A stretch of DNA of 58,431 nt from a virus. A program made the position numbers and the translations under genes. The stretch lies in the IMG/VR virus record IMGVR_UViG_3300035665_000039, positions 1 through 58,431 of that record; one strand, written 5' to 3'. The notes beneath the pieces were generated by a model, which was not told where the DNA came from, did no database searches, and was given only the letters and a program-made list of their open reading frames with translations. Positions 21,591-58,431 of the stretch are shown piece after piece (the first letter of the stretch is position 1; each line of letters opens with the position of its first letter).

Positions 21591-21833
21591 ATGAACGCAC
21601 CTAGCAACGACACCCTGACCTTCGGCGAGAAAGCCGTTGGTATGACATTCAACCCCAGCTACGACCCGACGGTCGAAGCCATCAAGCGCAGATGCGCCGA
21701 CCTGATCGATGAGATCCACGAGCTGCGCACCAACCAGCCCAACGGGGAGATCGCGCGCATGGCCAGCATTGCCATCACTGAGATTCAGTCGGCTCAGATG
21801 TGGGCAGTCAAAGCAGCGACGTGGAGGTTCTGA
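21591..21833 (+). CDS. small helical protein (80 aa), possibly related to the phage family that includes cyclic-nucleotide sponges (unverified)
   Basis: ATG after GAAAGGA. Motifs LTFGEKAVGMTFNPSYDPTVEAIKRRCADLIDEI and ITEIQSAQMWAVKAATW. Confidence 0.6.
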   Translation: MNAPSNDTLTFGEKAVGMTFNPSYDPTVEAIKRRCADLIDEIHELRTNQPNGEIARMASIAITEIQSAQMWAVKAATWRF

Positions 21834-23052: not shown

Positions 23053-26000
23053 GGTTTGCGGGGTGCCTCAAGGCTCTTGAGGTATTCCCGGTTCACCTCG
23101 GTGGCCATCTGGTCACGCGCGACCAAGATCTTGCGGCGCTCGAGCGTCTTCTGAGCCTCGGTCATCTTCTCGTCCCGAATCACCTGAATCTCAGCCTTGC
23201 GCATCTGCGAGATCGCATTGTCGTAGGCGTCGGCCAGTGAGGCCAGGCCAAGCAGTCGCTTCTCGTCGTCGGTCAGCTTGGGCTCGAGTCCGACGCGCGC
23301 CTGCTGCTTGACCTCATCGACCACCTTGCCGATCTCGCGGCTACGTTCGCCTGCGCTGCGGATGTTGGCAGCCTCGTCTACCTCGCCATAGAACTTGTTC
23401 AGCACGGGGATCTTGGCCGCCTTGATGTCCTTGTCGTCGCCTGTCATGGCAAGAATCGAGGAGCCCATCTGCTCGATGAACGAACCCAGGCCGCCCGTCG
23501 TTGCGCTGATCAGGGTCTGGATGGTTCCAGGCGTGACCGAGGTCTCCACGCCTGCGATGCTGCCAGGCTTGGCCTCGTTGCCGCCGCCGAGTCGGTTGAG
23601 CGCAGCGGCAATTTTTGCCGGCACCGTTCCCTGCGAGCTCGTGAACATGCGCTCGGAGTCGGGCTTCGTGTCGAACGGCGAGCGCTCGGGCGAAGACCTC
23701 GTGCCGAAGGTGTTGCGCTCGGACACGAGCTGGATCGGCAGGTCAGCGATCGTGGGCATCGCGGCCAGCAAGACCTGGACGCCATCGGTAGGATCGAACG
23801 ATCCGCCGAACGGGTTGATCGAGCCAAACACGACCGAGGTCATGTGCAGCGCTGCCTTGGTGGGTGTCAGGCCGCGCCGCGGGTCTTCTTGGTTGCGGAC
23901 GCTATCAGCAATGACATACCCCAGGTTCGGAAAGATGTTGAATCCGAACTGAACCGGGATCGTGAAGTAACGACCGCGCTTGCCCACGCGCTGGATACCG
24001 TCGGCCAGGGGTTCGCCGGGCGGCAGCATGATGACCATGTTGCGCTCTTTGACGTAGCCGGGGATCTTGTCCCAGTAGGCTTCGCCGTCGTCGTCCTCGC
24101 CCCCTGCAGAAGCCCCGTAGAAGGCCAGCATGGCGCCGATACCGGCCACCCCTGCCATAGCCCCAGCCACAGCCGGCGAGCGCAGCACGCGCGCGAATTG
24201 GGCCGTTCCTTGGACCGCTGCGTTGTAGAAGAGGTACAGGTTGTTGAGCGCCCCACCCCACTCACCCTTGCGGTTGAAGTTGGTCGTGCCGTTCTTGGCG
24301 AGCAGAGCTGCCTGCACGCGGGTCCTGCCGCTTTGCTTGGCCGCGGAGTAGAGCGCGAACCGGGTTGCATTCTCGGACGCGGCACCCAGGAACTCGAGCG
24401 CCTTGAGCGTGAGCCTGGCCAGCTTGTAGGTGCGGGCTGCCTTGATGCGCTCGATCGCGCCGCGGGGCTTGGCGCCAGCGGCAAGCATCTCGTTGCGCAG
24501 GTCCTTCTCGATGTCCTCGAGGCCGCGGATATAAAAGCCGCCCGTGATCCCGCCAGCGTTGCGGAACTCCTGGTAGAGCTGACTGGTCTGGGCGCCGAGC
24601 TCGGACTTCGAAGACTGCACAAGCGCTGCGCCGTAAGAGGCCAGGTACCGGGCAAGACCTTTGGGGCCGAGCTCCGCAAGCGCAGCAGTTGTACCCGACC
24701 ACAGCGCGTCGCGCGGAATGTTGATTGCTGCGAAGGCTGGGTTGTACCGGGTGAGCATGTTGCGCATCCAGTTGTTCCACCAGCCCGACATGGCCACGAC
24801 GGCACGCTCGAATCCGCTCGTCTCGTCCTTCCATGCCTGACGCAAAGCGCGCGCAAGATCCGGGTCAGCAAGCTTGATATAGACCTGCTGGCCACCGACC
24901 TTGACGCCGATCGTGTCGTCGCCCTTTTCGATCTGCCTGGTGTACTGCACAAGGCCGGTCGCCTTGTTGAATGCCGGCTTGGTGCGCTCGACGTCCACGT
25001 CCCACAGGTCGGGATCGGGGTTCGACAGCACGAAGTCCAGCAGCACCTTGCCGACGTCGTTCTTCTCGACGCGCATCACCACGCGCTCGTAGTCGCGGAT
25101 CACGTTCTCGATCAGATCGGACGCACGCGAGCGGCGGCCCATGGCGCGGATCGTTTCCTTGCCGCGGATGTTGACCCCGCGGCCAACGCCTGGACGCATG
25201 CGTCCTTCGTCGTCCACGTTCTCGAGGCCGCGCAGCGGGATGTAGTTCTGGTACGCACCATCGAGCGCGGTGAACTCGTCCTGCGTGATCAGACCTTCAG
25301 CGAGCATGATCTGGCGAGTGGTCGAAGCAATCGTCATCAGGTCGCGATGAAGCTCTTCGTACTGCTGCGCCTTGGGTCCAGACTGGACCTGCTGCAGGAT
25401 CGTGTTCGCGTCAGCAGTCTTCATGCCAGAGCCGCCGTCAGGCATGCGCTGGTTGATGCTGGCGATGTAGTCGTTACGCTCCTCGGCGTGCTTAGCGTAG
25501 GCATAGAGCGCGAGCTCATCGAGGTCGATGTCGTAGCTCACCGCCTTGTCGATCATGGGCTGCACGATCTGCGACTTGAAGTCGTCCATCGCAGCCTGGA
25601 TGCGGCCCGGCATGAGCGTGTTCGCGTCGTAGAAGTTTTGGGCTTCGGTGACAGTACCGCCCTGCTCCCTGACCGCATCGATCACGCGCTTCATGCGCAG
25701 CGCGTCGTCTTGCAGAGCGCGCCTTGCGTCGTCGGTCATCGATGGTGCGGGCAGACGGAAGCGACCGCCGATCACGCTCAGGCGTTGACGACGGTTGCTT
25801 GCTGTAATGTCCGGGTCTTTAGGGTCGAACGTGCCGCGGTTTCCACTGGCGGATTTGATCTGGGTGCTGTCAAAAGCAACGATGACTTGCTTGACGCCGT
25901 TCTCATCAACAGCGATCAGCCCGTCCACGGACCCGTCGGTCATTGCCCTGTCAAGTGCGTCAGCGCTGTATTCAGAAAAGGAAATGACTCGCGGGTTTTT

Positions 26001-29000
26001 CATACTGACAAACACGGGCATGACGTTGCCGCCATCGCCTGTTGCCATGGCGTTGGCATAGCTTTTGGATTCGCTTGCAAAGTAGGCGTCGCCAAACTTT
26101 TGACTCGGCCGGAACTCATTGAAGTCGTTGTTTGTCCCGTGATAAACCACCAGCGGCTTACCTTCTGCATCCACTACCTTGCTGTCGCCGAACCAGCGCT
26201 TGAACGCTGGCGTCTCAGTCTGCGCACGGTTGCTGAATGCAGGCGTATCGGCCAGACCTTGGGGCGAGGATTCGGCCCGGTAGTTATCGCCAATCCAGCG
26301 CATCAAGTCCATGTCGCTCTTGACCTTGCGATCAGCAATCATGGAGCGCAGTTTCGGCGCCACGGCAGGCCACGGCGTGAAGAACTTATTGAACGGACGA
26401 CCAGCCTGTGATAACATCTGTGATGTGGATGCGCTGGGTGGAGTTACCGGGACAGGCCCGGAACGTTGAGATCCAGATTCATCCACCACCCCAACATCCG
26501 GTCGACCTGTCAGTGCAGGCTTGGCCAGCGCCAGATCCACATAGCGAGCGGCGCCCTCGTTGATCCTCCGAAGAATCGTGTCCGCGTTGCGATCGCCTGG
26601 ATCGACAATGCGGCGCTGGTACGCCGAGTTGATGTACGCGTTGCTGCGCGAATTCGAATCGGCCACCGTGATCGGAACGAAGATCGCGCCAATGTCACCC
26701 GTCATGGGTAGCACGAGCTCCTTCTCGTTTGGCGACTGCCTGCTCTGCAGAACAAGCGCCGGGCGATACAGGCCACGGACAAACTGCTCAGGCGTGATGC
26801 TGGCGAACTCCTCGGCGTGCTTGTCGACAAACACCTTGCGGATGATGCTCGGTGCGATCTGCAGGTCCTGGGTGCTGGCGCCGAGCATGTTCATCACATG
26901 CGGCAAACGACCCAAGACGACGGGCTCGGGGTTCAAGCCGTAAGACGGATCGGCGCGCAGTCGATTGATCGCACGCGTGAGCGCCCTGGCGCCGTTGCGG
27001 ATGTCCGCCTCGAGCGCGCTTTGTGGCGAAACCTTGGGTAGCCTGCGGCGCTCGCTTGCGGCGATACTGTCCTCTTCGTCAAGCTTGCGGGCGAGCTCGT
27101 CCTTGTACATCGGTGCGGTCGATGACCAGACCGGGCTGTCTTCGAACTGGGCGTAGACCTCCGGCATCATGGCCTTGATCATCCGCGACCACTCGGTGCC
27201 GTCCATGCGGCCCGCAGGCAGCGAACGGTTGGCCGCAATCTTCTCGGCGTCGCTGAGCACACGCTCAGCAGGCGGCACAATGTCGTCCGTACGCATGCGA
27301 GTCTGGCTTCCGAGCTGCTGGACGCCGACCATGTGTTTCCCCAGCAGGACTGCGACGCCCGAGGGACCTGCGTCGCGGGTCATGTAGCCATCGAACCCGG
27401 CATTCATGACCGCAAGCTCGAAGGCATTCGCGCCGCGGTTGTTGCGCGCCAGGCGCTGGCTGTCCGCACCCATGTCGTACAGGTTCTGCAGCCGGACGCG
27501 GTGTGCAAAACCGCCGACGCCGGCCTCTGGGTTGATGCCGGTACCGCGGTCGAGGTAGAAATAGACACGCTGCTTCAGCCGCGGGTCTGAGCCTTCCAAA
27601 CGGGCCATCTCGGCACCCTTGAGACCGGTGCCGTAGGCAGTGCTGAGTAGTGTGGTGCGGGACTGTCGGCTGTAGTGGTAGCCAACTGCAGAGGTGGCGC
27701 CCTCTCGGGGGGCACCATACTCAGGGATTACTCCCCGAACTTCCTCTTCAGAGCTTCTTCCAACGCCTGCTGCGCTGGTTGCATCGGATCGGTTGCTGAA
27801 CTCGATTCCTTCGGCTCGGAGCTCTTGCTCGAGGGCTGCGGTCGCTTCTGACCGAAGATCACGAGCCCGTTGCCGAAGTACCGCTCTGCTTCCTCGTCCG
27901 TCATTGGTCGAACTGGCATAGTCGTACTCCTGTTTGCTTGGGAATGCCGCGAATACTTCACGGGTCAGAACACTATAAGCTTTGTTAAGTTTTTGGTCAA
28001 CAAGAATCGCAAGCTCGCTCGTCGGAACGTCCGAGAAGTTGAGCACCGTCATGCCGCCGTTCGCGTACGACTGGCCGCCAATCGGCTTCTCGCCGTTGAC
28101 TTCGATCTCGCGAAGCTGGTTGTAGATCACCTCGATCTCCTGGGGTGTCTTGTCGCCCACCTGGATCACGAGCGCGGTGTTCTTGTCGCCGCCTTTGAAC
28201 TCTTTTGGCGAGACCACGACCATCGAGTCCTGGGCGAGCACGAAGCCGAGCATCTTGGAGATCTCGACCGGATCGCCCTTGTTCAGCAATAGCGCAAACG
28301 AGGGGTTCGTGTCGTCCAGATAACTGCCGACCTGCTCTGCCAGGATGCCGTCGGTATTGAACTCGGCGAGCACCCGCGGCACGATAGTCCGCGCAACGCG
28401 ATCGCTGATCGCAAGACGCTGCGCAGGATCCAGTGATCGCCAGGTCTCGGTGAGGGCGGCGTTGTTCGGGTCTGGAGCGACCTCGAAAACAACGGCGCGA
28501 CGCTTGGGGTCTAGTCTTTCTTGGGCGAGCTGGGTGCGCTCGTATCGGTCGCGGATGAATCGCTCCCGCTCCCCAGTTTCGAGCGGGCCAGATCTCCCAG
28601 CTTCTTGACCAGCGCTTTGCGATCCTTGTCCGACATCTGCTGCATTCGTTTGTCGAATGCTTCTTGATCCAGATTCGGCTGCTGTGCGGAGTCGTTGTTC
28701 ATCGTATCCCTCTTGCTTGAGAACCTTCTCGGTTGCGCCTGCGTAGTCCTGGCTGGTCACGCTGAGCTTGACGCCCATCGCCTTGTAGAGCTCCTGCTCA
28801 GGGTACCAAATGAGTGCCTGCATGGCAGCCGGCGGGATCCGCTGGCCGTAAGCCTTCTCGACCTGAGCCACTGCCTTGCGCACGACTTCGCGCAGCAGGC
28901 GACGCTCGCCACCGCTGGCGGGTACGTCCCTCGGCTTGTCGAGCGACTGCACCATCGTGTCCGAAGCGAGCACGAGCTGCGACTTCTTGCGGGTGCCAGC

Positions 29001-32000
29001 GTCGAATTCGGCGCGGTTGTTCTTGAAGTCTTTCTCGTGGGCCTTGCCGACTTGGCGAGCGAGCTCGATCGCAGCATCCTGATCTTCTCGGGCGCGTGCC
29101 ACGAGCTCTGCATCGAACTGATCGGCGTACACGCCATCGGTGCCAGTCTGATCGAGGGCGCCGCGCAGGCGCGAGAGTTGCGCTGAGAACTTCTCAGCAT
29201 CGAATGCGCGCAGGCTACCGGTCAACCGGCCGATGGTCCGCATGAACCACATGTCCATGGTGACCGGCTCGAAGTTGCCGTTCAGGTTGGAGTAGAAGCC
29301 GAATCCGATCTTCGGACCGAAGACAGACGACCCGAGCACCATCTCATCGATCAGCTCGCCGCCAGGCTCGAAGCCCGCACGGTTGAGCTCACCGATCGTG
29401 AAAGGAGTCACGAGGAACTGACGGAACAAGTCAATGCCCATCTCATCGATGAGCGCGTTGGCCAGCTTGAAGTTGCCGACCATGACCGATGCCGAGTCGC
29501 CCTCGCCCACCTCCGGGTACTTGCCGGTCTTGCGGTAGGTGTCGTACTGACGCATCGTGAACTTGAGATTGTTCTCGACGTTCAGGCCTTGCGAGGTGAT
29601 CGCCATCGCGAGGCGGAAGATCATTTGAGCGTTGCGGTCGCTCTGCAGCTCGGGGTACTTGACCGCGGCCATCGCAAGCGTGCGGGCAATCGTCTCGTCG
29701 TACCACTCGAGCGCATTGCCCGCGGAGCGGATCGCGGCCAGCGTCTCGGCTGCCATCAGCTTGGCGACGGTGTCCTGGTCCTCGGGGTTGGCGATGTCCA
29801 GCAGTCGCAGGCCAGAAGCGCGGCGACGGTCCTCGAGGAACTTGACGACCTCCGGGATGCCGCCCTTGAGCGGTGCCACGAAGGCGCGATCCTTGGGTTC
29901 GCCGGTCTGGTACTCGAGGGAGGTGGAAGCGAGCTCAGCGTCGCTGAGGCCTAGCTTCTTCTTGATCGCGGAGGCGATCTTCTTGTCGACCTTGGGCTCC
30001 TTCTCGAGCACCTCAATGACCTTGTCTGCATCATCGGAGCGGAAGGTGATGCGGTCGCCATCAACCTTGAATGGCTTGGCGACATCGCGCGCCAGGAAGC
30101 GGATGCGGTCGGCATCCTTGGTAAAGACAATGCGACCCTTTTCGTCCTTGGTGAACTTGTACCTGCCGGCGCTGCTGCTTACGGCGTCTCTTTGCCCGAC
30201 AGATCCGCTCCGTCCTTGAGCGCTTCCTGGAAGGCCTTGTCCATCTTCTGCCGCCAGAGCTTCGCCTCGAGCTGCTCCTGCGGCGTCAGGGAATCCTTCG
30301 ATGGTTGCTTGGTAGATGGCGTCGTCGATACGGCCGGCTTGGTATTCGGTTTCGGTTGCATTGAGTAGTCTCTCCTTCAGTCCAGATTTTATCACAGGCG
30401 TGATACTTTGGAGCGGCAAAAGCGCCGCCTTGCCCGGACCGCGCGAGTTGTCGATCGCATAGAGGGCGAAGTTGGGGTTGTCACCGAATTCATCCTGTAG
30501 CTTTCGCACTACTTCGCTCGAGCCCGCATGGCCTTTGACCAAAGCATCGAGCGGAACAGCGCGGCGCGTCTTCATGGCGCGCGTCAGCACGCCATTGACC
30601 AGCGCCTCCTCGGGTTCGCGGTAGATGTATGCGATGACCACACGCTGGCCGCGGTCGAGTACGCGTTGGACGTTGCGCCTTGCTTTGTCGTAGCTCGAGA
30701 GGGTGCCATCCAGGATCGTATGAACGCTGTCCTGCACCTTGCTGAGAAGCGTATCGGCAGAGGACTTGCCGGCCCCGCCGCCGCCGGCCATGAAGAGCAC
30801 GCTCGACTTGCGCGGTGCAGCATCGACGCGAGCTTCGAACATGCGCTGGGTCATGTTGCTGGCCGCATCGTGAACCTCGGCAGCCCGAGTCTTGTCGGCG
30901 CGGTAATCGGGCGAGAGCTCGCGGACCAGGTCGGTGTCGATCAGCTTGCCGTCTTGAGCGCCAGGCAGTGCGCTGTACTCAGCAACCGCGGCGTCGAAGT
31001 CGCCGTCAATCCTGGCCTGCAGCTTGTCGTTGATGTTGCCGCCAGCCTTGTTGCTGAACATGAAGTCGGCTTTGTCGCCGTAGACCGGATTCTTGGCCAG
31101 GACCAATGGGCCGATCTGGATGACTTCGTCAGCGGAGATCACGGGCTCCATGGTTGAGCGATCGTAGAAGTACGAGTGCCGCTCGGGGTCCATGCCGACC
31201 TGTACCCAGTCCTTGGACTTGAGCGCCTGGTCGGCTTTCATCTTGGCTTCGGCCGAGCTCGTAGGCTTCCAGTCGCCCATGATGGTGGCGATCGTGCCTT
31301 TGTTTGCGCCTGCGGCGATCTTGGCTGCAGACTTCTCGAGCATGCCGAACCTGACATTGGTTACTGAGGCAACCGGCTCGTAGCCGATCACCGTGCCTGC
31401 ACCGAAGGACTTGCCATCGGGGCGATGCACGCTGACAACCCAGGCGCCGTGCTCGGAGTAAGACGGAATATCGAGGCGCAGTTGAGCAGCCTCGCCGAGC
31501 TTGAATACCTGGCTTGGCAGACCGAACTTGGCGGCCTTTTCTGCCGACTGCCCGCGGCCATTGGCAAGCGCGAACTTGGCAGCCTCGGGGGTAACCGGAT
31601 CCGGCACCGTTTCGTAGGGTTCGACGGGCTTGTACTCGTTGACCAGCCGGTCGTAGTCCTGCTTGGTGATCTCACCAGCCTGCAGCGCTCGCATGCCTTC
31701 CTGTAGCTCGGGCGTGCGCTTGATGACGTCCTTGAAATCCATCCCGATACGCGAGCGCGAAGACTCGGCGACGTCGGTCGCGACGTCGGGCTTGAGGCCC
31801 TGCGCCTTCATGGCTTCGGCGTACGCGTCGGTAAGAAGACTGCGAGCTCGCTCGACGTCCTTGATGTACTTGGACACGAACTCGTCGCCGTACTCCTTCT
31901 TGGCGCCGGTCACGATCTGAGTAAGTTTGCTCAGGATGACCTTGGCCACCTCGGCAAACTCCTTGTTGCCCATCTTCGTGCGCAGCTCTTCCCAGAAGTC

Positions 32001-34703
32001 GGCACGTTTGCTGACCGCCTGGGCCATCAAGGCCGGGGCCTCTTCATCGAACTTGGCGTCGTCGTACCCGAACTCGGCTTGGAACTCGCCCTTGCGTTCT
32101 TGGTTGAACACCTCGAGCAGTGCAGCGTTGAGTTGCTTGCGACGCTCTGCAGGTAGGCCATGCAAGCCTTCGTGCATGGCAATCGACAGCGGCGCGTCAT
32201 CCGCATTGGCGTCGATGAAGATGTGCTTGCCGCCCAGGCGGTTGATGAACCCATTGGGCATGCCGGCCGGGTCACCTTTGACCGCACGGACCACCGTCAG
32301 CGTGTTGCCCATCAGGCGGGCTACCGTGCTTGCCAGACGCTGCGAATCGCTCAGGTCCGCAGGCGAGATCGCTTCGACGGTTACACCGCGTCGCTTCTCG
32401 AGCTGGGTCTGGACGTTCTGAAGCGTTGTCGCGGGCGCGGGTAGCGCGAGTCTCAGTCCGGCACGTTCAGAATCAGACAGTTGGACTTGCGCTGCGGGGG
32501 CTTGGCCTCCTGCAACAATGCCGCCTTGTGCGGCACCCATTGCTTGCTCTTGTTGCTGTCCTTGCGTTTCTGCTTGCTGGGCTTGAGTGGCTTGAGTGCC
32601 AAGGCTGCTCTCCTGAGGATAGCCGGCCAGTCGGAATTTGCCGTTGGGCATCTGCTCGATGGACCACGACAAGTCTTTGAACATGCGCTGCCGGCTGGGT
32701 AGCGCTTGCTCCGCATCCATGAGCGTGACGTATCCGTCACCGCGTCGGCCCGTCCAGATCTCGGTCGGGACTACAGCATTGTTATCTTGTCCGATCGCGG
32801 CTTCCGTGCGGGCCAGCAGGTCCGCATCCGATGCGCGAGGGATCGGGCTCGTGCTCGTCAGATTGGCAAGTCGTTGAGGGGCTCCGCCTCGAAGAGCATC
32901 ATCTTGTTGATCGGCCCCTCGAATTCCTGCGAGAGCTCCACCCGGCACCCCGGCGGCGAGATCAAGATCACGTCCTGCAGCATCCACGCCTCGTTGGTCG
33001 AGAGCACTCGTGCGTCCAGCGCCTCCTGCAAGTGGGGGTAGAGTTGAGCCTGGCGTGCTGACATCACTACCTCCGATGATGGCCGGCGCATCGGGCACCG
33101 GAATGACGATATCCACCAGGCCGGCGCGCTGAGTCGCTGAACCTGGCTCAGTGAAGTTGGTGAGGCGTGCTGCTTGTGCGGCCTCCTGTGCGCGACTGGC
33201 GGCACCCAGCACGCTGAAAGGTGCGGAGGTAACGAGCGCCTGGCCCATCGCCTCGGGGACGCCCTCGGTTAGCTTGACGTTCGGGTCGACTGTCCTTGCG
33301 ATGACATTTGAGACAGCTTGTGTACCACCTTCTTCAGCCTGTTCGCCAAGCAAGTCTCGGATAATGGTTTTCCCCACGCCGGAAGCAGTAAGAGCTTGCG
33401 CAGTGGCCGTGCCCAAACCTCGAGTTGCGATCGCAGCTTCGGCGCCCGCAAAACCAAGCAACCCAAGCGGGAAAGCTACAAGCGCAGCCATTCTGGCTTT
33501 AGTGGTTGAGAGGTCTTCAATCGCTTGCTGCGGCGTCTTGCCCTCGGCAACCATGCGTTGAAAGTCAGGGTTCTTTTCCCAGACTGATAGCGGGGTTTGC
33601 GTTGGGTCGGTGAGCTTTTCATAGACACTGCCAGCAGCATCGCCGCCAGCCATGGTCATAGCCGCAGCTCTGCCCCCTGCCACCGCTCCGGTTGCACGCG
33701 CGCCTGCTTGTATTGCTCCGCCGGTGATCGCGTCACTGAAAGCTACTGCGGGGCTCACACGGCTCGCTACGTTGACACCAGCACCACCAGCTGCGGCACC
33801 CAGGCGCGAAGCGCCCAAGACACCCAGGAACATGGGCACTTGCTTGGCGGCTTCGGAGATGGTGAGCGCGGGGCTCGTGACGAGCTGCACGACCGTTGCC
33901 GCGTACTTGTCGAAGAAGCCCTCTTCCTGCTGCACACGCTGGCGCAACTGGTCGCGCTGAGCTTTGAGCACGTCGCTCTCGGCGGCCTGCCATTCCTTCT
34001 GAGTCTGGCGAAGCGTCTCAGCGATGTCGCTACTCGGGGCGATGATGTTGATCGGGAGCTGAGCCAGGGAGATGGCGCCTTGCGATAGGCCCGAAAGCGT
34101 ATCGATTGCCCACTCGCCTGCGCTTCGAAACTCGTCCGCCTTCGCATCGCGGACCATGTCCTGTACGACTGGCCGATTCGTGCGCTGAATCATGTCGTCC
34201 AGCGACGGAACCTTCTGCTCTTCCATCGACTGAGCGACCTTGGCGACGATCGGACTCGAGGGCCTGGCTCGACCTGCGCGGACGTCGGCCGCCTGTTGTA
34301 CGGTCTGCGTGCTGATCGGCCCGGCACCCAGCGATAGGCGCTGATCGATCGACGCTTGGCGCTGCTCGGCGGTGGGCTGATAGCCCTCCATGACGCTGGG
34401 CTTGGGCGCCGGCTTGAATACGTCAGTGAGGCGCGCAATCAGTCCGCGATTGTCCGCGGGAGGAGGCGTGCCTTGCATCGATGTGGCCGCGTCGCCGAAG
34501 TCAGTGCCGGCGATCTCAGGCGCCTGAGGGCGCTTGATCGAGGTGTCTACCAGGAACTGGCCGCGTGCCAGGTCGATGTCTTCGGTTGGAACTTGAGGAG
34601 CGATGACCTCATCAAAGTATTGACGACGCGCCTCTTCCTGCTGTTCGTAGGAGAGGGCCTGGAATGCGGAACTTGCCGCTACGTCAGACCACTTCTTTGC
34701 CAT
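23049..34703 (-). CDS. Giant multidomain (polyvalent-type) virion protein, 3,884 aa
   Basis: An uninterrupted 11.6-kb ORF. Recognisable modules: HExxH (MHEGLH, 32160-32177); a zeta-toxin-like P-loop kinase (GGGGAGKS, 30762-30785); an ART-like domain (FKRWFGDSKVVD...VVYHGT..., 25839-26204); and Gly/Ala-rich hydrophobic segments at both ends. Confidence 0.85.
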   Translation of the reverse strand: MAKKWSDVAASSAFQALSYEQQEEARRQYFDEVIAPQVPTEDIDLARGQFLVDTSIKRPQAPEIAGTDFGDAATSMQGTPPPADNRGLIARLTDVFKPAPKPSVMEGYQPTAEQRQASIDQRLSLGAGPISTQTVQQAADVRAGRARPSSPIVAKVAQSMEEQKVPSLDDMIQRTNRPVVQDMVRDAKADEFRSAGEWAIDTLSGLSQGAISLAQLPINIIAPSSDIAETLRQTQKEWQAAESDVLKAQRDQLRQRVQQEEGFFDKYAATVVQLVTSPALTISEAAKQVPMFLGVLGASRLGAAAGGAGVNVASRVSPAVAFSDAITGGAIQAGARATGAVAGGRAAAMTMAGGDAAGSVYEKLTDPTQTPLSVWEKNPDFQRMVAEGKTPQQAIEDLSTTKARMAALVAFPLGLLGFAGAEAAIATRGLGTATAQALTASGVGKTIIRDLLGEQAEEGGTQAVSNVIARTVDPNVKLTEGVPEAMGQALVTSAPFSVLGAASRAQEAAQAARLTNFTEPGSATQRAGLVDIVIPVPDAPAIIGGSDVSTPGSTLPPLAGGAGRTSALDQRGVDAAGRDLDLAAGVPGGALAGIRGADQQDDALRGGAPQRLANLTSTSPIPRASDADLLARTEAAIGQDNNAVVPTEIWTGRRGDGYVTLMDAEQALPSRQRMFKDLSWSIEQMPNGKFRLAGYPQESSLGTQATQAQQAETQGQQQEQAMGAAQGGIVAGGQAPAAQVQLSDSERAGLRLALPAPATTLQNVQTQLEKRRGVTVEAISPADLSDSQRLASTVARLMGNTLTVVRAVKGDPAGMPNGFINRLGGKHIFIDANADDAPLSIAMHEGLHGLPAERRKQLNAALLEVFNQERKGEFQAEFGYDDAKFDEEAPALMAQAVSKRADFWEELRTKMGNKEFAEVAKVILSKLTQIVTGAKKEYGDEFVSKYIKDVERARSLLTDAYAEAMKAQGLKPDVATDVAESSRSRIGMDFKDVIKRTPELQEGMRALQAGEITKQDYDRLVNEYKPVEPYETVPDPVTPEAAKFALANGRGQSAEKAAKFGLPSQVFKLGEAAQLRLDIPSYSEHGAWVVSVHRPDGKSFGAGTVIGYEPVASVTNVRFGMLEKSAAKIAAGANKGTIATIMGDWKPTSSAEAKMKADQALKSKDWVQVGMDPERHSYFYDRSTMEPVISADEVIQIGPLVLAKNPVYGDKADFMFSNKAGGNINDKLQARIDGDFDAAVAEYSALPGAQDGKLIDTDLVRELSPDYRADKTRAAEVHDAASNMTQRMFEARVDAAPRKSSVLFMAGGGGAGKSSADTLLSKVQDSVHTILDGTLSSYDKARRNVQRVLDRGQRVVIAYIYREPEEALVNGVLTRAMKTRRAVPLDALVKGHAGSSEVVRKLQDEFGDNPNFALYAIDNSRGPGKAALLPLQSITPVIKSGLKERLLNATETEYQAGRIDDAIYQATIEGFPDAAGAARGEALAAEDGQGLPGSAQGRSGSVGQRDAVSSSAGRYKFTKDEKGRIVFTKDADRIRFLARDVAKPFKVDGDRITFRSDDADKVIEVLEKEPKVDKKIASAIKKKLGLSDAELASTSLEYQTGEPKDRAFVAPLKGGIPEVVKFLEDRRRASGLRLLDIANPEDQDTVAKLMAAETLAAIRSAGNALEWYDETIARTLAMAAVKYPELQSDRNAQMIFRLAMAITSQGLNVENNLKFTMRQYDTYRKTGKYPEVGEGDSASVMVGNFKLANALIDEMGIDLFRQFLVTPFTIGELNRAGFEPGGELIDEMVLGSSVFGPKIGFGFYSNLNGNFEPVTMDMWFMRTIGRLTGSLRAFDAEKFSAQLSRLRGALDQTGTDGVYADQFDAELVARAREDQDAAIELARQVGKAHEKDFKNNRAEFDAGTRKKSQLVLASDTMVQSLDKPRDVPASGGERRLLREVVRKAVAQVEKAYGQRIPPAAMQALIWYPEQELYKAMGVKLSVTSQDYAGATEKVLKQEGYDEQRLRTAAESGSRSIRQTNAADVGQGSQSAGQEAGRSGPLETGERERFIRDRYERTQLAQERLDPKRRAVVFEVAPDPNNAALTETWRSLDPAQRLAISDRVARTIVPRVLAEFNTDGILAEQVGSYLDDTNPSFALLLNKGDPVEISKMLGFVLAQDSMVVVSPKEFKGGDKNTALVIQVGDKTPQEIEVIYNQLREIEVNGEKPIGGQSYANGGMTVLNFSDVPTSELAILVDQKLNKAYSVLTREVFAAFPSKQEYDYASSTNDGRGSRAVLRQRARDLRSEATAALEQELRAEGIEFSNRSDATSAAGVGRSSEEEVRGVIPEYGAPREGATSAVGYHYSRQSRTTLLSTAYGTGLKGAEMARLEGSDPRLKQRVYFYLDRGTGINPEAGVGGFAHRVRLQNLYDMGADSQRLARNNRGANAFELAVMNAGFDGYMTRDAGPSGVAVLLGKHMVGVQQLGSQTRMRTDDIVPPAERVLSDAEKIAANRSLPAGRMDGTEWSRMIKAMMPEVYAQFEDSPVWSSTAPMYKDELARKLDEEDSIAASERRRLPKVSPQSALEADIRNGARALTRAINRLRADPSYGLNPEPVVLGRLPHVMNMLGASTQDLQIAPSIIRKVFVDKHAEEFASITPEQFVRGLYRPALVLQSRQSPNEKELVLPMTGDIGAIFVPITVADSNSRSNAYINSAYQRRIVDPGDRNADTILRRINEGAARYVDLALAKPALTGRPDVGVVDESGSQRSGPVPVTPPSASTSQMLSQAGRPFNKFFTPWPAVAPKLRSMIADRKVKSDMDLMRWIGDNYRAESSPQGLADTPAFSNRAQTETPAFKRWFGDSKVVDAEGKPLVVYHGTNNDFNEFRPSQKFGDAYFASESKSYANAMATGDGGNVMPVFVSMKNPRVISFSEYSADALDRAMTDGSVDGLIAVDENGVKQVIVAFDSTQIKSASGNRGTFDPKDPDITASNRRQRLSVIGGRFRLPAPSMTDDARRALQDDALRMKRVIDAVREQGGTVTEAQNFYDANTLMPGRIQAAMDDFKSQIVQPMIDKAVSYDIDLDELALYAYAKHAEERNDYIASINQRMPDGGSGMKTADANTILQQVQSGPKAQQYEELHRDLMTIASTTRQIMLAEGLITQDEFTALDGAYQNYIPLRGLENVDDEGRMRPGVGRGVNIRGKETIRAMGRRSRASDLIENVIRDYERVVMRVEKNDVGKVLLDFVLSNPDPDLWDVDVERTKPAFNKATGLVQYTRQIEKGDDTIGVKVGGQQVYIKLADPDLARALRQAWKDETSGFERAVVAMSGWWNNWMRNMLTRYNPAFAAINIPRDALWSGTTAALAELGPKGLARYLASYGAALVQSSKSELGAQTSQLYQEFRNAGGITGGFYIRGLEDIEKDLRNEMLAAGAKPRGAIERIKAARTYKLARLTLKALEFLGAASENATRFALYSAAKQSGRTRVQAALLAKNGTTNFNRKGEWGGALNNLYLFYNAAVQGTAQFARVLRSPAVAGAMAGVAGIGAMLAFYGASAGGEDDDGEAYWDKIPGYVKERNMVIMLPPGEPLADGIQRVGKRGRYFTIPVQFGFNIFPNLGYVIADSVRNQEDPRRGLTPTKAALHMTSVVFGSINPFGGSFDPTDGVQVLLAAMPTIADLPIQLVSERNTFGTRSSPERSPFDTKPDSERMFTSSQGTVPAKIAAALNRLGGGNEAKPGSIAGVETSVTPGTIQTLISATTGGLGSFIEQMGSSILAMTGDDKDIKAAKIPVLNKFYGEVDEAANIRSAGERSREIGKVVDEVKQQARVGLEPKLTDDEKRLLGLASLADAYDNAISQMRKAEIQVIRDEKMTEAQKTLERRKILVARDQMATEVNREYLKSLEAPRKP
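25839..26204 (-). other. ADP-ribosyltransferase-like domain of the giant protein (polyvalent-protein ART type)
   Basis: The motif FKRWFGDSKVVDAEGKPLVVYHGTNNDFNEF...GDAYFASE...VMPVFVSMKNP matches what I recall for ART domains of phage/plasmid polyvalent proteins. Confidence 0.55.
27728..27919 (-). CDS. Embedded +1-frame small ORF C (63 aa, MPVRPMTDEEAERYFGNGLVIFGQKRPQPSS...QQALEEALKRKFGE)
   Basis: AGGAG (27931-27927) with a 7-nt spacer before ATG 27919. GC3 is about 71% versus about 46% in the giant frame (hand count). Its own promoter is at 27972-28000. Confidence 0.5.
   Translation of the reverse strand: MPVRPMTDEEAERYFGNGLVIFGQKRPQPSSKSSEPKESSSATDPMQPAQQALEEALKRKFGE
27972..28000 (-). promoter_or_regulatory. 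Internal promoter TTGACC-N17-TATAGT inside the giant gene
   Basis: -35 at 28000-27995, -10 at 27977-27972, exact 17-nt spacer. Sits in a short AT-rich island of an otherwise GC-rich gene, about 50 nt upstream of ORF C. Confidence 0.55.
28511..28702 (-). CDS. Embedded +1-frame small ORF B (63 aa, MNNDSAQQPNLDQEAFDKRMQQMSDKDRKALVKKLGDLARSK...)
   Basis: GAGGG (28712-28708) with a 5-nt spacer before ATG 28702. GC3 is about 71% versus about 43% in the giant frame. Confidence 0.45.
   Translation of the reverse strand: MNNDSAQQPNLDQEAFDKRMQQMSDKDRKALVKKLGDLARSKLGSGSDSSATDTSAPSSPKKD
30179..30361 (-). CDS. Embedded +1-frame small ORF A (60 aa, MQPKPNTKPAVSTTPSTKQPSKDSLTPQEQLEAKLWRQKMDKAFQEALKDG...)
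   Basis: AAGGAGAG lies upstream (GGAG 30375-30372, 10-nt spacer) of ATG 30361. GC3 is about 78% versus about 44%. Starts right after the zeta-like domain. Confidence 0.45.
   Translation of the reverse strand: MQPKPNTKPAVSTTPSTKQPSKDSLTPQEQLEAKLWRQKMDKAFQEALKDGADLSGKETP
30386..30405 (-). promoter_or_regulatory. Perfect operator TATCAC-AGGC-GTGATA (30390-30405) overlapping an extended -10 (TGATAAAAT, 30394-30386) inside the giant gene
   Basis: Read directly. Same operator/-10 geometry as the 9057 and 12463 promoters. No good -35. Confidence 0.45.
30430..31010 (-). other. Zeta-toxin-like P-loop kinase domain of the giant protein (approximate limits)
   Basis: The sequence KLIDTDLVRELSPDYRAD...AAEVHDAAS...VLFMAGGGGAGKSS...VVIAYIY fits the pattern of zeta-toxin/AAA_33-type kinases. 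Confidence 0.55.
32858..33064 (-). CDS. Embedded +1-frame small ORF D (68 aa, MSARQAQLYPHLQEALDARVLSTNEAWMLQDVILISPPGCRVELSQEFEGPINKMMLFEAEPLNDLPI)
   Basis: GGAGG (33074-33070) with a 5-nt spacer before ATG 33064. GC3 is about 88% versus about 36% in the giant frame over the same bases. Ordinary, non-junk composition. Confidence 0.55.
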   Translation of the reverse strand: MSARQAQLYPHLQEALDARVLSTNEAWMLQDVILISPPGCRVELSQEFEGPINKMMLFEAEPLNDLPI

Positions 34704-39131: not shown

Positions 39132-39159
39132 AAACTAAAATGGCCCGCAAAAGCGAGCC
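39132..39159 (-). terminator. Terminator-like hairpin (RNA: GGCUCGC-UUUU-GCGGGCC-AUUUUAGUUU)
   Basis: 7-bp stem with one G-U pair and an interrupted U-tract. Lies between the lysis cassette and ATG 39120. Confidence 0.45.
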
Positions 39160-39216
39160 AATGCCGGCCGTGCGCTGGGCGCACTGGTCCGGCGAGGATT
39201 GTAGCAAGAAAATACG

Positions 39217-39226
39217 CATTGTGATA
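39217..39226 (-). repeat. TATCACAATG motif copy just downstream of Rz, followed by TATTTT and the 39132-39159 hairpin
   Basis: Exact 10-mer. Confidence 0.95.
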
Positions 39227-45691: not shown

Positions 45692-48586
45692 TCACGCAAA
45701 CCTGGCTTGGGACGCCAGGACAGTGAACGTCGCGTTCGCTGTCTTGACGACAGTGAATGTGTAGACGTCAATGCTCGAGGCATTGCCGCCCGTGGGTGCG
45801 GTGCCGCCTTGCCACTTGGGCGTGACGGTTGAGCCGTCGACCTGGATCACGTTCGGGTAGTAGGGCGTGGCGCCGTTGGTTACCAGCAGCGCGATCGTCG
45901 CTGACTGGCCGGTCTGCATGATTGTGTTCAAGCTGGTGCTGCCGTTGCCGCGGATGTTGAACGTAAAGTTGGCTGAGGCGTTGCTGGTGTAGTACTGGAC
46001 CGCCTGCGAGATGACGTCGAAGTTGGTTGTGGCTGAGGGTGCCGCGGCCGTGATGGTTGCGAGCTCGAGCAGCGCCTCGATCGACGCATAGCTACCGAGC
46101 TGCAGGATGCCGTTGTTGGCGACTGGCGTCATATTCAGACCCAAACCGCTGCCCGTGAGCGTCATCAGGTCGAAGAAGCCGGTCGCGGTTTGAACGCCAA
46201 AGCGAAGATCCCCAGCCTCGGCCCCAGCGGTCGGGTCGACAATCGTAGAGATAATGCGTGCGTAACTCTGGTCTGAGCCGCCGCTATCCTTGCCGCGCCA
46301 TAGCAGCACGCCTACCTGGTCGGATGCTGCCGGCGATGTTGAGTTGCGATACAAGACAACGTCAGGCGCAGCACTTGATCCTGCGTCGACAGCCTCGAAT
46401 ACAACCAGGTCGCCAAGGTTTGTGCCTTGGAAGGTGTAAGCACCCGAAGCAGTCGGTGACCCGAAGGTGATGTTTCCACTGCCGTCCAGAGTGACTCGGT
46501 CAACCCCGTTAGTGGAAAGAATGAGAGGCAGGGCGTTGTTTGACGCAAGGCGAACGACTGACGCGGTCGTTTGAAATTGCCCTTGTGTGGTGCCGGTACT
46601 TTGAAGCAGGACGCGAGAGTCAGCGCCCGTATTGACCGTCAGGTTGCCCGTGAGCGTACCGCCGGCCAAAGCCAAGTAGGTCGATGCGGCAGTCGTGATC
46701 TGCAGGAAGCGAGCATCGGCGGCAGCCTGGGTATAGGTATTGGCGACGTTGAACGAGCCGTACGCGACGATGTCTACGATGTCGCCTGCAGTAGCGCCGA
46801 TCGAGAGAACAATCGTGCTGCCCGTGGTAGCGATGAAGTCGACACCTACCTGCAGCTTGACGCCGTTTAGGTAGACGTCGACATAGCCGACGTCATAGGT
46901 AATCGAGAACGTCGTTTGGCCAGACGTCGCCGTATACACCTGGCGGTTCGCCGTGCCGTTGACTGACGAACCAGCCATCGCCCATGCGGTGCCGGTGTAG
47001 ACATACATCAGGCTCGTGGTCGTATTGAAGTACAGCGCTCCGGTTTGAAGCGGATTGCCGTCGTTGTCGACCGTCGGCGCAGTCGCCTTGGCGCCAAGAT
47101 ACAGGTCGTCAAACGCATCAAATGAGGCCGCTGCAGCCGCTGCAGAGTTCGCTGCGTTGGTTGCACTGGTCGACGCATTCGAGGCGCTTGTAGACGCGTT
47201 GGATGCGCTCGTAGAGGCATTGCTAGCCGATGTCGCAGCAGCGGCAGCAGAGGCCGCGGCAGACGTCGTGCTGCCGAAGAGCGCATCAATCTGAGCGATC
47301 GTGTACGCGTCCGAGATCCCGTAACCAGCAAGGGTCGTCGGGTTGGTGCCTGCGGTGACGCGGCCCCACTGATCGACCGTGACCGACTTGTAGGTACCGG
47401 CCGTCACGCCGCTCGTCGCAAGATCGATCTCATCCGCACCTACGACGATGCGCGAGCTCGAGGCGGTGTTGACGTTGAGCGTGTTGCCGGTCTTCGTCAT
47501 GCCGGTGCCGGCGTTGATCTGCCCTGCCCCGCTGAACTGCACCCAGGTCACCGCGGTTGTGCCGAGCGTGCCGCCTGCCGAAATCGTGCAGACAAATCCG
47601 TTGTTGGCGTTGGCCGTGCCCTGCTCTACAAAGCAGAAGGCGTGGACCAGCTCGTCCCAAGTGTTCGCATCAGAGGAGCGGCTCCAGGAGCCTGCAGCAA
47701 CCACATAGATGCCGTTTTGCGAGGCAGTCGACTGGTCCTTGACCAGCACTCGATCACCCGCGATCACGGCGATGCCGTCGATCGTTTGCGTGCCGCTCAG
47801 GGTGATGTTGGCGGTCGTGCCGACTCGGCAAGACGCTTTGGCATCGAGACCCTGGGAGACCGTGTCGACGTAGGCCTTGTTGGCTGCGTCGGAGTCGCCC
47901 GTCGGGGTCGACAGGCCGGTGATCGTGGCCGAGGTGGCCAGGCTCATATCCAGCGTGCCGCTGATGGTCACGTTGTTGAACGAGCTCGTGCCGGTGCTGG
48001 TAATGTTGCCGGTGACATCTCCGGTCACATTGCCCGTAACGTTGCCCGTTACGTTGCCGGTCAGATTGCCGGTGACGTTACCGGTGACATTACCGGTCAA
48101 CCCGCCAACGAACCCGACGGTCGCGGTGATGGTCGTGCCGCGGACGGTCTGGGCGGTGGTCGCTCCGATCACTGTGTTGTTGATCGTGCCGCCCGTGATG
48201 ACCGCATTGGTGAAGCTTGAGGAGCCGGTCGAGGTGATGTCGCCCGTGACGTTGCCGGTGAGGTTGCCGGTCACGTTTCCAGTCACGTTCCCGGTGTATC
48301 CGCTGGAAGCGGACAGCGTCGTGAATGCACCCGTCGATGGAGCTGATGCTCCGATTGTGGTGCTGTTGATCGTGGAGCCCGTAATCGCAAGAGACTGCAG
48401 AGCACTCGAGGCGATCAGCGCGGTGCCGGCCGCATTGATCATCGCGACCTTGTAGCCATTGCCAGCAAGGGTCGGTAGCAGGTTGAAGCCTGCGGTTACC
48501 AGGTCAAGCTCTGCGCGAAGTGCCGCCGAGGACCCCGGCGCATTGGGTGCCGGGTAGGTGGAATGGTTGTAGTAGCTATTGGGCAT
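45692..48586 (-). CDS. Tail fibre with tandem GNVT and SASNAST repeats (964 aa)
   Basis: (T)GN[VL]TG repeats in two blocks (about 47995-48110 and 48236-48292). SASNAST x3 (about 47165-47228). Thr/Gly/Ala-rich fibre-like composition. Confidence 0.7.
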   Translation of the reverse strand: MPNSYYNHSTYPAPNAPGSSAALRAELDLVTAGFNLLPTLAGNGYKVAMINAAGTALIASSALQSLAITGSTINSTTIGASAPSTGAFTTLSASSGYTGNVTGNVTGNLTGNVTGDITSTGSSSFTNAVITGGTINNTVIGATTAQTVRGTTITATVGFVGGLTGNVTGNVTGNLTGNVTGNVTGNVTGDVTGNITSTGTSSFNNVTISGTLDMSLATSATITGLSTPTGDSDAANKAYVDTVSQGLDAKASCRVGTTANITLSGTQTIDGIAVIAGDRVLVKDQSTASQNGIYVVAAGSWSRSSDANTWDELVHAFCFVEQGTANANNGFVCTISAGGTLGTTAVTWVQFSGAGQINAGTGMTKTGNTLNVNTASSSRIVVGADEIDLATSGVTAGTYKSVTVDQWGRVTAGTNPTTLAGYGISDAYTIAQIDALFGSTTSAAASAAAAATSASNASTSASNASTSASNASTSATNAANSAAAAAASFDAFDDLYLGAKATAPTVDNDGNPLQTGALYFNTTTSLMYVYTGTAWAMAGSSVNGTANRQVYTATSGQTTFSITYDVGYVDVYLNGVKLQVGVDFIATTGSTIVLSIGATAGDIVDIVAYGSFNVANTYTQAAADARFLQITTAASTYLALAGGTLTGNLTVNTGADSRVLLQSTGTTQGQFQTTASVVRLASNNALPLILSTNGVDRVTLDGSGNITFGSPTASGAYTFQGTNLGDLVVFEAVDAGSSAAPDVVLYRNSTSPAASDQVGVLLWRGKDSGGSDQSYARIISTIVDPTAGAEAGDLRFGVQTATGFFDLMTLTGSGLGLNMTPVANNGILQLGSYASIEALLELATITAAAPSATTNFDVISQAVQYYTSNASANFTFNIRGNGSTSLNTIMQTGQSATIALLVTNGATPYYPNVIQVDGSTVTPKWQGGTAPTGGNASSIDVYTFTVVKTANATFTVLASQARFA

Positions 48587-54690: not shown

Positions 54691-54717
54691 AAAAAAAACG
54701 GCGCCACTGGGGCGCCG
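54691..54717 (-). terminator. Strong rho-independent terminator (RNA: CGGCGCC-CCAGU-GGCGCCG-UUUUUUUU)
   Basis: Perfect 7-bp GC stem, 5-nt loop and eight U residues. Read directly. Confidence 0.85.
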
Positions 54718-54778
54718 AAACAACAGGAGGGGAAAAATGGCTGGGACAGCGATCTTTTGACGCACTGCCCCGCCCCGA

Positions 54779-54807
54779 ATAATACAGCATTGTGATATTG
54801 CACGCAA
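54779..54807 (-). promoter_or_regulatory. Promoter TTGCGT-N17-TATTAT with TATCACAATG in the spacer, immediately after the portal stop
   Basis: -35 at 54807-54802, motif at 54797-54788, -10 at 54784-54779. The terminator begins about 55 nt downstream of the predicted start. Confidence 0.55.
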
Positions 54808-57016: not shown

Positions 57017-58431
57017 TATCCTGTTACTTCATCAAGAGCGGCCCAGGCCGCCTGCATGCCGACGGGAACGACCCAGTCATCCGTCTTCTTGACCGGGTAC
57101 GCGAAGGTGAGCGCCAGTGAGTCGGCGCGGTCTGGGGATTTGATGCCCCGCTTCTTCGCGTCGTCCTTGCTCTCGATGAGCAGCAGTCCGCCGCGGTAGT
57201 TGTACTGAAGGGCTGTCAGGTCGGTGATCAGGTCGTTGTCGTTGGGGATCGACGCGCCGGTCTTGAGCCACTCGCGAAGGTCGCGCCACATGCGGGCGCG
57301 TAGGTTGTAGTTCTGGCCGTCGTCCACGCGCAGCGCCGAGTTGACGTCCACGACCATGTCGCCGAAGTCACGGCGCAGCATGTCGGCCACACCGGCACCG
57401 ATCCCGATCGTGTCGACCGCAATCTGCGACACGTCGCCGAGTTGGGCGCGGATCTCGTCTTTGGCGCGGCCTGCGACGTCCACGACGTCGAGCTTGCCGG
57501 CCACGATCTGGCGCAGCACCACCCTGCCCTGACGGAAGGTGAAGACGGTCTTGTCGTTGCCGAACCTGGCCACGTCGATGCCCATGATCACGGGGCCGTG
57601 TGCGATCAGGTCAGCCGGACCCTTGCGGGCTGCAGCCTGCACGATGTCGGAGCCGATGAACGCATTCGAGACCGAGGCGGTGTAGCTGCGGTCGATCTCC
57701 TGCGCGATGACGACCGGGTCGAGCTTGGCCTTCTGCTCTTCGTACCAGGCCTCGTCCTTGCGAGGGTCGTCTCGCCAGTCGAAGATGAACTTCGGGGTCT
57801 TGCCGTCGTGCGCCTTGCGGTAGAACGGGTTGCCCGCACCGTTCGGGGTCGAGACGTAGATTCGGCAGTTGGAGGTCTGCGAGAGCGCAGCGTCCGCGGC
57901 ATCCGGCCGCTCGAGGAACGCAGCCTCATCGATGAAGTAGATCGAGGTGCGGTTACCGCGGCCGATGTTGTCGCCTGCCTCGCCGACGATGAACGAACCC
58001 GACTCCGGGTTCTGGATCTTCATGAAGGGGGCGTGCTTGGTCACGTCCCAGCCGTCGGGCTGGAACTCTCCAGGCAGCATGTCCACGAACTGGCGAACCT
58101 TCCAGAAAAGGCTCGCGGGGTTGCCGATCTGATCGACGTAGTCCTCCTTGCGCGACCCGAACCCGGTGACCGTGCCTTCCTTGAAGAGCATCATCCACGA
58201 GGCAAACGCCACGCATAGCCACGAGACGCCTGCGTCTCGGCTCTTCTCCACGACGCCGTCCTGGCGCTGCAGCCAGCGGGCCAGCAGCCAGTCGATGAAC
58301 TCGCGCTGCTTGGGGAAGAGCACAAACGGCACGACCGTACGCAGGCCTCGCTCGGCCAGGCGCGGATCGAACGTCATGCCCCAGTCGTTGATGAAGTCCG
58401 CCGGGTGCCCGGCGTAGTAGTCCTGGAGCCT
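57013..58431 (-). CDS. terL: Terminase large subunit, main part (5' end runs off the linear window; true ATG at 226; 505 aa in the circle)
   Basis: The N-terminus ...DFINDWGMTFDPRLAERGLRTVVPFVLFPKQREFIDWL and Walker B-like SIYFIDEAAF. The ORF is open to the window end. Confidence 0.85.
   Translation of the reverse strand, partial: RLQDYYAGHPADFINDWGMTFDPRLAERGLRTVVPFVLFPKQREFIDWLLARWLQRQDGVVEKSRDAGVSWLCVAFASWMMLFKEGTVTGFGSRKEDYVDQIGNPASLFWKVRQFVDMLPGEFQPDGWDVTKHAPFMKIQNPESGSFIVGEAGDNIGRGNRTSIYFIDEAAFLERPDAADAALSQTSNCRIYVSTPNGAGNPFYRKAHDGKTPKFIFDWRDDPRKDEAWYEEQKAKLDPVVIAQEIDRSYTASVSNAFIGSDIVQAAARKGPADLIAHGPVIMGIDVARFGNDKTVFTFRQGRVVLRQIVAGKLDVVDVAGRAKDEIRAQLGDVSQIAVDTIGIGAGVADMLRRDFGDMVVDVNSALRVDDGQNYNLRARMWRDLREWLKTGASIPNDNDLITDLTALQYNYRGGLLLIESKDDAKKRGIKSPDRADSLALTFAYPVKKTDDWVVPVGMQAAWAALDEVTGY
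58305..58431. repeat. Contig-closure overlap, copy 2 (identical to 1-127)
   Basis: Same comparison as copy 1. Confidence 0.95.

Follow-up and report, generated by a model that had tools for sequence, protein, structure and literature searches.

The window, by which we mean the whole 58,431-nucleotide stretch of viral DNA analysed here, carries the same small module, composed of a promoter, a 5′ RNA hairpin and a strong terminator, ahead of each of three late-gene blocks. The locus thus raises the question of why a promoter should be followed so closely by a terminator, and of how transcription might reach the genes beyond. We put at about an even chance the answer that these units are late-operon leader modules, acting at the three late promoters as an antitermination checkpoint that depends on a factor.

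The window is a metagenome contig in ENA. Its bases 1–127 recur identically as bases 58305–58431, and it was therefore taken to be a complete genome of 58,304 bp assembled as a circle. As a consequence of this circularity, unit 1 reads via the small terminase gene into the large terminase and portal genes at the opposite end of the window. The minus-strand late region is of the podovirus type, encoding small and large terminases, portal, a scaffold-like protein, the major capsid protein and tail fibres, together with an endolysin and an Rz spanin. The block behind unit 3 is closed by a giant gene, the 3884-aa product of which is a polyvalent protein; an N4-like phage, in which the giant gene would encode a virion RNA polymerase, was rejected on this ground, and no phage RNA polymerase was seen in the window. 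The immunity genes and the giant gene are located as follows.

8385–8585, minus strand: P22_Cro-family gene, divergent from the cI-like gene (immunity region 8385–9084)
8675–9022, plus strand: cI-like repressor with an HTH, matching the 434 and P22 C2 repressors
23049–34703, minus strand: 3884-aa polyvalent protein with ART-PolyVal (ADP-ribosyltransferase), LPD38 and Zeta-toxin domains

From the cro-like gene, the leftward operon continues with primase-helicase, RusA and several genes for winged-helix proteins as far as the late genes; Sak4, SSB, a Cas4-type exonuclease, a helicase, an Xis-like protein and an integrase are encoded in the rightward operon. The gene layout is lambda-like, with cI/cro followed by a replication/RusA operon, a conserved 100-aa gene and then the late genes. 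Judged by its predicted integrase, Xis-like protein, cI-like repressor and P22_Cro-family protein, the phage is temperate. A close cultured phage was not found, the portal being less than 33% identical to that of any cultured phage, and a scan of GTDB genomes for relatives or a host returned one 16.6-kb MAG contig only.

An int-alpA RNA is matched in Rfam at 8290–8360 on the minus strand (40.6 bits against a gathering score of 35.8); it sits in the gap of about 180 nt between the cro-like and primase-helicase genes and is an element separate from AlpA-type control. A strong terminator with no preceding promoter lies at 6048–6072 on the minus strand, between the primase-helicase gene and the RusA/winged-helix block, and read-through may be needed within the early operon as well if transcription is to arrive at the 100-aa gene. 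Directly past the integrase gene (20149–21387, plus strand) is a tRNA-like fragment (21397–21456, minus strand; Rfam tRNA, 29.6 bits) in which ARAGORN found no full tRNA; it is probably an attP core matching a host tRNA gene. The 94-aa protein encoded at 21549–21833 on the plus strand has an Acb2/Tad1 hairpin domain (E = 8e-11), and this family includes sponges of anti-phage signalling nucleotides. Within the 964-aa tail-fibre gene, GTNACNTTGCCG-like arrays with a 12-nt period (47976–48315, minus strand) indicate a four-residue protein repeat.

The three units are made up of the following elements.

1316–1321, minus strand: unit 1 -35, TTGACC, with the stop codon TGA (1320–1318) of the upstream 100-aa gene inside the hexamer
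1292–1297, minus strand: unit 1 -10, TATTCT, spacer 18, aligning with TATAGT/TAGTAT of relatives
1272–1285, minus strand: unit 1 5′-terminal hairpin, GGGU-AAUUGC-GCCC, beginning about 7 nt past the -10, at about +1
1217–1244, minus strand: unit 1 intrinsic terminator, GCCGGCU-ACC-AGCCGGC then UUUUUUAUUUU, its helix with compensatory changes
54802–54807, minus strand: unit 2 -35, TTGCGT (TTGCAC in relatives)
54779–54784, minus strand: unit 2 -10, TATTAT, spacer 17
54740–54773, minus strand: unit 2 long 5′-terminal hairpin, GCGGGGCAGUG.CGUC-AAAA-GAUCGCUGUCCC.AGC (leader z-score -4.2)
54691–54717, minus strand: unit 2 intrinsic terminator, a 7-bp all-GC stem and U8
39198–39203, minus strand: unit 3 probable -10, TACAAT, spaced from the hairpin as in the other units (alternative TATTTT at 39209–39214)
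39163–39193, minus strand: unit 3 5′-terminal hairpin, GCCGGACCAGUGCGC-CCA-GCGCACGGCCGGC (z-score -4.9)
39132–39160, minus strand: unit 3 intrinsic terminator, UGGCUCGC-UUUU-GCGGGCCA then UUUUAGUUU, stem 39160–39141

The stem of the unit 1 terminator spans 1244–1228 and is followed by TTTTTTATTTT down to 1217; the overlap between the -35 of this unit and the stop codon of the 100-aa gene (gaTTGACc) is found in most relatives. In unit 2, the -35 begins 4 nt after the portal stop codon (54814–54812), the leader is about 80 nt long, and the terminator, CGGCGCC-CCAGU-GGCGCCG (54717–54699) with eight T (54698–54691), is followed by GGAG and then by the TTG start (54680) of a 90-aa gene. All relatives have a hairpin at the 5′ position of unit 2. 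Downstream of unit 3, the ATG of a 591-aa gene is at 39120. An earlier note on this DNA had described unit 2 as TTGCGT-N17-TATTAT, a terminator, a TTG start and a leader of about 80 nt, and every one of these elements was recovered in the same place. Its -35 and terminator for unit 1 also hold, but the -10 that it read as TGTATT gives way to TATTCT (1297–1292), with which the relatives align. For unit 3 its location of the motif (described below) and of the hairpin stands, but, by the spacing seen in the family, the conserved -10 is more likely to be TACAAT than TATTTT.

Promoter-like hexamer pairs are not enriched in the window, where 5, 4 and 2 were found against 4.7, 3.7 and 4.6 expected from shuffled sequence, and the significance of the units must therefore rest on other evidence. 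Apart from the three unit terminators, the late strand has no strong terminator. An internal TTGACC-17-TATAGT (28000–27972) was rejected as a fourth unit; it lies inside the giant gene and has neither hairpin nor terminator.

Relatives were fetched via the portal (75 loci, 66–93% amino acid identity), the small terminase (38 loci) and the 591-aa protein (18 loci), and the promoter–leader–terminator arrangement recurs in them at all three junctions. A covariance model comprising the hairpin and the terminator was built mostly from unit 1 sequences of the relatives. On the window it gave exactly three matches, which are the three units, with E-values of 4e-14 for unit 1, which is in the training set, and of 1e-9 and 1e-6 for units 3 and 2, which are outside it; the next-best match (E = 0.005) is on the wrong strand. 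Across 91 sources the model gave 86 matches (57 distinct), all on the sense strand, and in the relatives they recur at these junctions, namely ahead of the small terminase gene, behind the portal gene and ahead of the gene for the 591-aa protein. A sigma70-like promoter is present in every one of the 57 distinct units, typically in the form TTGAC[C/G]-17/18-TATAGT, and in 43 of them at least 9 of the 12 consensus positions are matched. From the end of the -10 to the first G of the hairpin (conserved C-GGG) the distance is 6–7 nt in 53 of the 57. The order of promoter then terminator, which the earlier note had reported for the three units, is kept in all 57 distinct versions, with no case of the reverse. 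The terminators are strong, having 7–11 GC-rich pairs and U-rich tails, and their helix is 97.9% paired, with compensatory changes in six of the seven pairs. These sequence comparisons support the view that a promoter followed by a terminator is an arrangement conserved under selection in front of every late block.

Such a module might nevertheless operate without a dedicated factor. The units would then be constitutive attenuators or insulators, in which partly leaky terminators end the upstream operons, promoters top up transcription and the +1 hairpin blocks 5′-end-dependent decay of the long late mRNAs. In keeping with this, the three terminators close upstream blocks (the early operon, terminase–portal and capsid-to-lysis), and the hairpin is at the very 5′ end, a position typical of stabilising stem-loops; that it could simply stabilise the mRNA counts against the checkpoint reading, and neither an alternative antiterminator pairing in the leaders nor, among the proteins scanned, a known antiterminator was found. 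However, it is hard to explain in this way why the promoter should lie upstream of a strong terminator in all of the distinct units and downstream in none, and why terminators of this strength should be conserved by compensation; moreover, the hairpin conserves sequence and not a stem alone. We regard this explanation as unlikely, and continue with antitermination.

The junction downstream of the portal is polymorphic among the relatives. Unit 2 is present together with the 90-aa gene at loci L002–L019, L030, L038–L040 and L044, and at L001, L020, L027 and others the portal stop is followed directly by GG-TATCACA-ATG of the ‘MAILDITEY’ gene. L053 has unit 2 without the 90-aa gene, and L032 has a promoter without a terminator. 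Similarity of the box between units 1 and 2 is 9.4 of 14 within the same genome and 8.8 of 14 between genomes (permutation p = 0.08), which is weak evidence for concerted evolution of the box within one genome, and a scan across viral contigs with the 14-mer GGAGTATCACAATG returned scattered single matches only.

Across the units, the leader has a median length of about 50 nt (range 39–89), and the predicted transcript start is the first base of the hairpin or one base before it. A 5′ hairpin is found at this anchor in 51 of the 57 distinct units, compared with 43% of shuffled controls. In unit-1-type leaders it has a stem of 4–6 pairs and a loop of 5–7 nt (for example, CAGUGCG, AAGUGU or AAUUGC), in which positions A2 and U4 are conserved; unit 2, and unit 3 of the window, have a longer hairpin with CAGUG within the stem. 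The conserved hairpin sequence is C-GGG-N-(C/A)A(G)UG. Pair 3 of the stem is GC in 41 units and AU in 10, and pair 4 is GC in 22, CG in 9, UA in 6 and AU in 2. Compensatory changes are found in both helices, those in the hairpin by an anchor-based count; a register-naive count on the model alignment gives 59% pairing for the hairpin helix, a poor figure that arises because the seed alignment is off by one in many rows. The linker between hairpin and terminator is A-rich or, in unit 2, variable and 20–40 nt long, and unit-1-type leaders consist of one hairpin of 14–17 nt and about 6 nt, then the terminator.

A -10-like pause element of the kind required by Q proteins, TAnnnT, occurs in the first ~27 nt of one of the 57 units, compared with 5.8 expected from shuffles, and boxA (GCTCTT or CGCTCT) occurs in none of them. 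A classical attenuator, in which the 5′ arm of the hairpin would pair with the 5′ arm of the terminator, was rejected, since lineages with GGAG/CUCC stems keep AGCCCGCC terminators and this pairing is thus not maintained. GGAG and GGAU variants argue against pyrG-type reiterative transcription at a GGGG start, and the leaders are too short, with a single stem, to be put-like RNAs.

A promoter, a hairpin and a terminator are also the anatomy of an sRNA gene, and the terminated RNAs of 40–90 nt might act in trans like StxS, the late genes being transcribed by other means. A functional PR′-terminated RNA has a precedent in StxS itself, which is produced from PR′-tR′ of Stx phages (PMC7547250). 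The unit 2 leader, moreover, gives a full-length match to ncS16 (Rfam RF02866), but its 29.8 bits are below the gathering score of 48 and ncS16 is a chromosomal ompA 3′-UTR sRNA (PMC5688073), and the identity was rejected on both counts. Against sRNA genes it can further be said that conservation does not extend to the single-stranded parts of the leaders, which amount to about 6 nt in the unit-1-type and there offer little seed sequence, and that no late promoters beyond the units are evident. We consider it very unlikely that the units are sRNA genes of this kind.

The 10-mer TATCACAATG lies in the spacer of unit 1 (1301–1310), unit 2 (54788–54797) and unit 3 (39217–39226), all on the minus strand, which bears out the observation of the earlier note that it is just upstream of the -10 in all three. 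A reading of it as a qut- or QBE-like signal of the units is not supported. The window contains 17 exact copies, every one in the sense of local transcription and most of them 4–17 nt past the stop codon of the preceding ORF. In seven, the ATG of the motif is the start codon of the next gene, with GGAG before it, and seven others sit between -35-like and -10-like hexamers. The relatives have 91 sense and 0 antisense copies in 874 kb. Lineages such as L198–L207 and L043–L068 are without TATCACAATG and keep complete units, so that it cannot be their essential control and is probably not their recognition signal. Judging from where its copies fall, TATCACAATG belongs to a separate, genome-wide, sense-strand gene-junction motif system.

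In its sequence features TATCACAATG resembles the stoperators of L5 (PMC9283540) and the start-associated sequences of Cluster K (PMC3203893). Like these, it is an asymmetric motif, of 10–13 bp in this class, and is present in many copies that all point the same way with respect to transcription, occupy promoters and short gaps between genes, and often overlap stop or start codons. It differs in host group and phage type and in sharing a half-site with palindromic operators. Its first six bases, TATCAC, are the half-site of three perfect palindromes, TATCAC-N4-GTGATA.

9066–9081: palindrome TATCACAAGCGTGATA, in the promoter-like TTTGCA-16-GATACT just downstream of cI
12473–12488: perfect palindrome overlapping the best sigma70-like promoter of the genome (12463–12490)
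30390–30405: perfect palindrome inside the giant polyvalent-protein gene

With up to two mismatches allowed, 11 matches to the palindrome are found, compared with 0.63 expected by chance, and two of the perfect ones overlap the spacer and -10 of the best early promoters. The late promoters might be mainly under the control of the repressor or Cro, for which the spacer copy of TATCACAATG would serve as an operator half-site or stoperator-like element, with the terminators as a back-up. The shared half-site, the position of the palindromes at early promoters beside cI, the occurrence of the motif in the spacers of seven promoter-like sites and its L5-like single orientation at gene junctions are all in keeping with this proposal, in which binding to TATCACAATG is putative. 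The retention of complete units by the lineages that have no TATCACAATG argues against it, and the terminator behind each promoter would be left without explanation. We judge it quite unlikely as the main control. Neither this explanation nor that of sRNA genes excludes antitermination, with which both are compatible.

The proposed antitermination checkpoint would depend on a phage-encoded factor. The gene adjoining unit 1 is the following.

1318–1620, minus strand: conserved 100-aa basic protein, predicted to be all-helical, immediately upstream of unit 1

This gene keeps its place, some 30 nt ahead of unit 1, in almost every relative. Homing-endonuclease-like ORFs are inserted upstream of unit 1 in L196, L203 and L212, with an HNH-type motif in L196 and L203; the 100-aa gene of L196 and L212 lies beyond the insertion, on its upstream side. 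The AlphaFold model of the protein has four helices (pLDDT 80.7, pTM 0.48), and a conserved arginine-rich helix has the sequence TNAERQRK[Y/W/F]R. No match to the protein was found in a profile search of PDB sequences or in Pfam, including a re-test of faint precomputed hits to PF10723, and none to the model was found by Foldseek in the PDB and BFVD. Among the proteins scanned there is no homologue of Q, N, AlpA or another known antiterminator; in particular, neither the 100-aa protein nor the small early proteins, including the 3012–3422 ORF, match the Q family in Pfam. That ORF contains 3012–3365, the product of which had been put forward by the earlier note as a weak candidate for a Q-like factor and matches neither the Q family nor any other. 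By position only, the 100-aa protein is a candidate late regulator or antiterminator, and a better candidate than the 3012–3365 product.

Because the genome layout is lambda-like, antitermination control appears to be the best and most economical reading of the units, and with a temperate lifestyle the constitutive-looking late promoters would need a block. In the mechanism that we propose, the near-consensus sigma70-type promoter would fire and the transcript would open directly with a GC hairpin carrying the conserved sequence; about 25–60 nt further on, immediately ahead of the ribosome-binding site that serves the first late gene, polymerase would meet the strong intrinsic terminator. When the phage factor is absent, transcription would stop there, leaving an RNA of about 40–90 nt, and the packaging, capsid, lysis and ejected-protein genes would be kept silent in the lysogen and in early infection. 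A factor produced from the end of the cro–replication–RusA operon would make polymerase starting at these promoters termination-resistant. The conserved 100-aa basic protein would be the most likely factor, and the +1 hairpin its most likely recognition element. What the sequences show is the module in its three copies, its conservation, the covariation at the RNA level, the fixed spacing from the -10 and the lambda-like gene order; the factor-mediated escape from termination, the identity of the factor and the role of the hairpin in its recognition are inferred.

The checkpoint reading is backed by the strict order of promoter, hairpin and terminator, by the strength and conservation of the terminators and by lambda PR′-tR′ and AlpA, which are experimental precedents of like geometry. 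It is opposed by the failure to find a known antiterminator family or boxA, by the rarity of the sigma-dependent pause element and by a box similarity between units of one genome that is only weakly elevated, and on balance we would place its probability near the middle of the scale. A more far-reaching proposal is that the 100-aa protein founds a new antiterminator family, in which N-like hairpin recognition through the arginine-rich helix would be combined with Q-like deployment, the protein being loaded at the transcription start of three late promoters with neither boxA nor a sigma-dependent pause; this we put forward as speculative and rather doubtful.

If the checkpoint reading is true, the units would constitute a compact late-gene switch of about 100 bp of DNA and one small protein, and one that is experimentally tractable. 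The phages that carry the module form a widespread family of temperate podophages, uncultured and represented by dozens of relatives in metagenomes. What could also emerge is an antiterminator unrelated to Q, N, AlpA, p7 and gp39, which would extend the known ways of making RNA polymerase termination-resistant. The units predict abundant phage RNAs of 40–90 nt in lysogens, and TATCACAATG would exemplify repeats of the stoperator or start-associated type outside actinobacteriophages.

Comparison with known systems begins with lambda Q, since the earlier note had drawn a parallel with PR′-qut-tR′. The parallel is apt for the layout and for the presence of a small conserved gene where lambda has Q, but fails for the pause element. 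As in lambda, a constitutive-looking sigma70 late promoter gives a short terminated transcript directly ahead of late genes, a gene in the position of the regulator ends the cro–replication–nin (RusA) operon and adjoins the late promoter, and the phage is temperate, with cI/cro. Unlike lambda, which has one unit, this genome has three; no Q-family protein is detected; TAnnnT is confined to a single unit; and the leaders, of only about 40–90 nt, have a conserved RNA hairpin at +1. As regards a Q-binding element in the promoter, TATCACAATG is in the three window spacers, yet it is absent in some unit-bearing lineages and common elsewhere, and no DNA element of the promoter spacer is common to all units in all lineages.

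The AlpA system of Pseudomonas (PalpB, PPA0807; PMC7969949) is similar in that an intrinsic terminator begins 26–54 nt past the start site, at +26 or +54 in the case of lambda PR′-tR′ and the AlpA-controlled promoters (PMC7969949), and in that one small factor has, or in the window would have, more than one target promoter. The recognition element of the AlpA targets (PMC7969949) is between the -35 and -10, the place occupied by TATCACAATG in the window. In contrast, the spacer motif here is dispensable in related lineages and present at many non-promoter sites, and no match to the winged-helix AlpA family was obtained among the proteins scanned.

With lambda N and boxB of nut, the units share a small leader hairpin with 4–6 GC pairs, a loop of 5–7 nt, conserved loop positions and a covarying stem, and a candidate protein of about 100 aa with an arginine-rich helix and a conserved aromatic residue (ERQRK[Y/W/F]R), for which RNA binding is putative. 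They differ from nut in having no boxA in any of the 57 units, in the position of the hairpin at the 5′ end by late promoters and not inside early operons, and, in unit 2, in having the conserved CAGUG in the stem and not in the loop; the 100-aa protein, for its part, has a predicted folded, helical structure and no N-family match. The put RNA of HK022 consists of two adjacent stem-loops, spans about 65 nt and acts in cis, whereas unit-1-type leaders have a single hairpin of 14–17 nt. We infer by analogy that the module may be functionally like promoter-proximal antitermination of the Q or AlpA type, yet it falls outside the Q, N, AlpA and put systems as such. What is new here is that an uncultured phage family has, besides a candidate factor that matches no fold in the PDB or BFVD, a late leader module in three copies, each with an RNA hairpin at +1.
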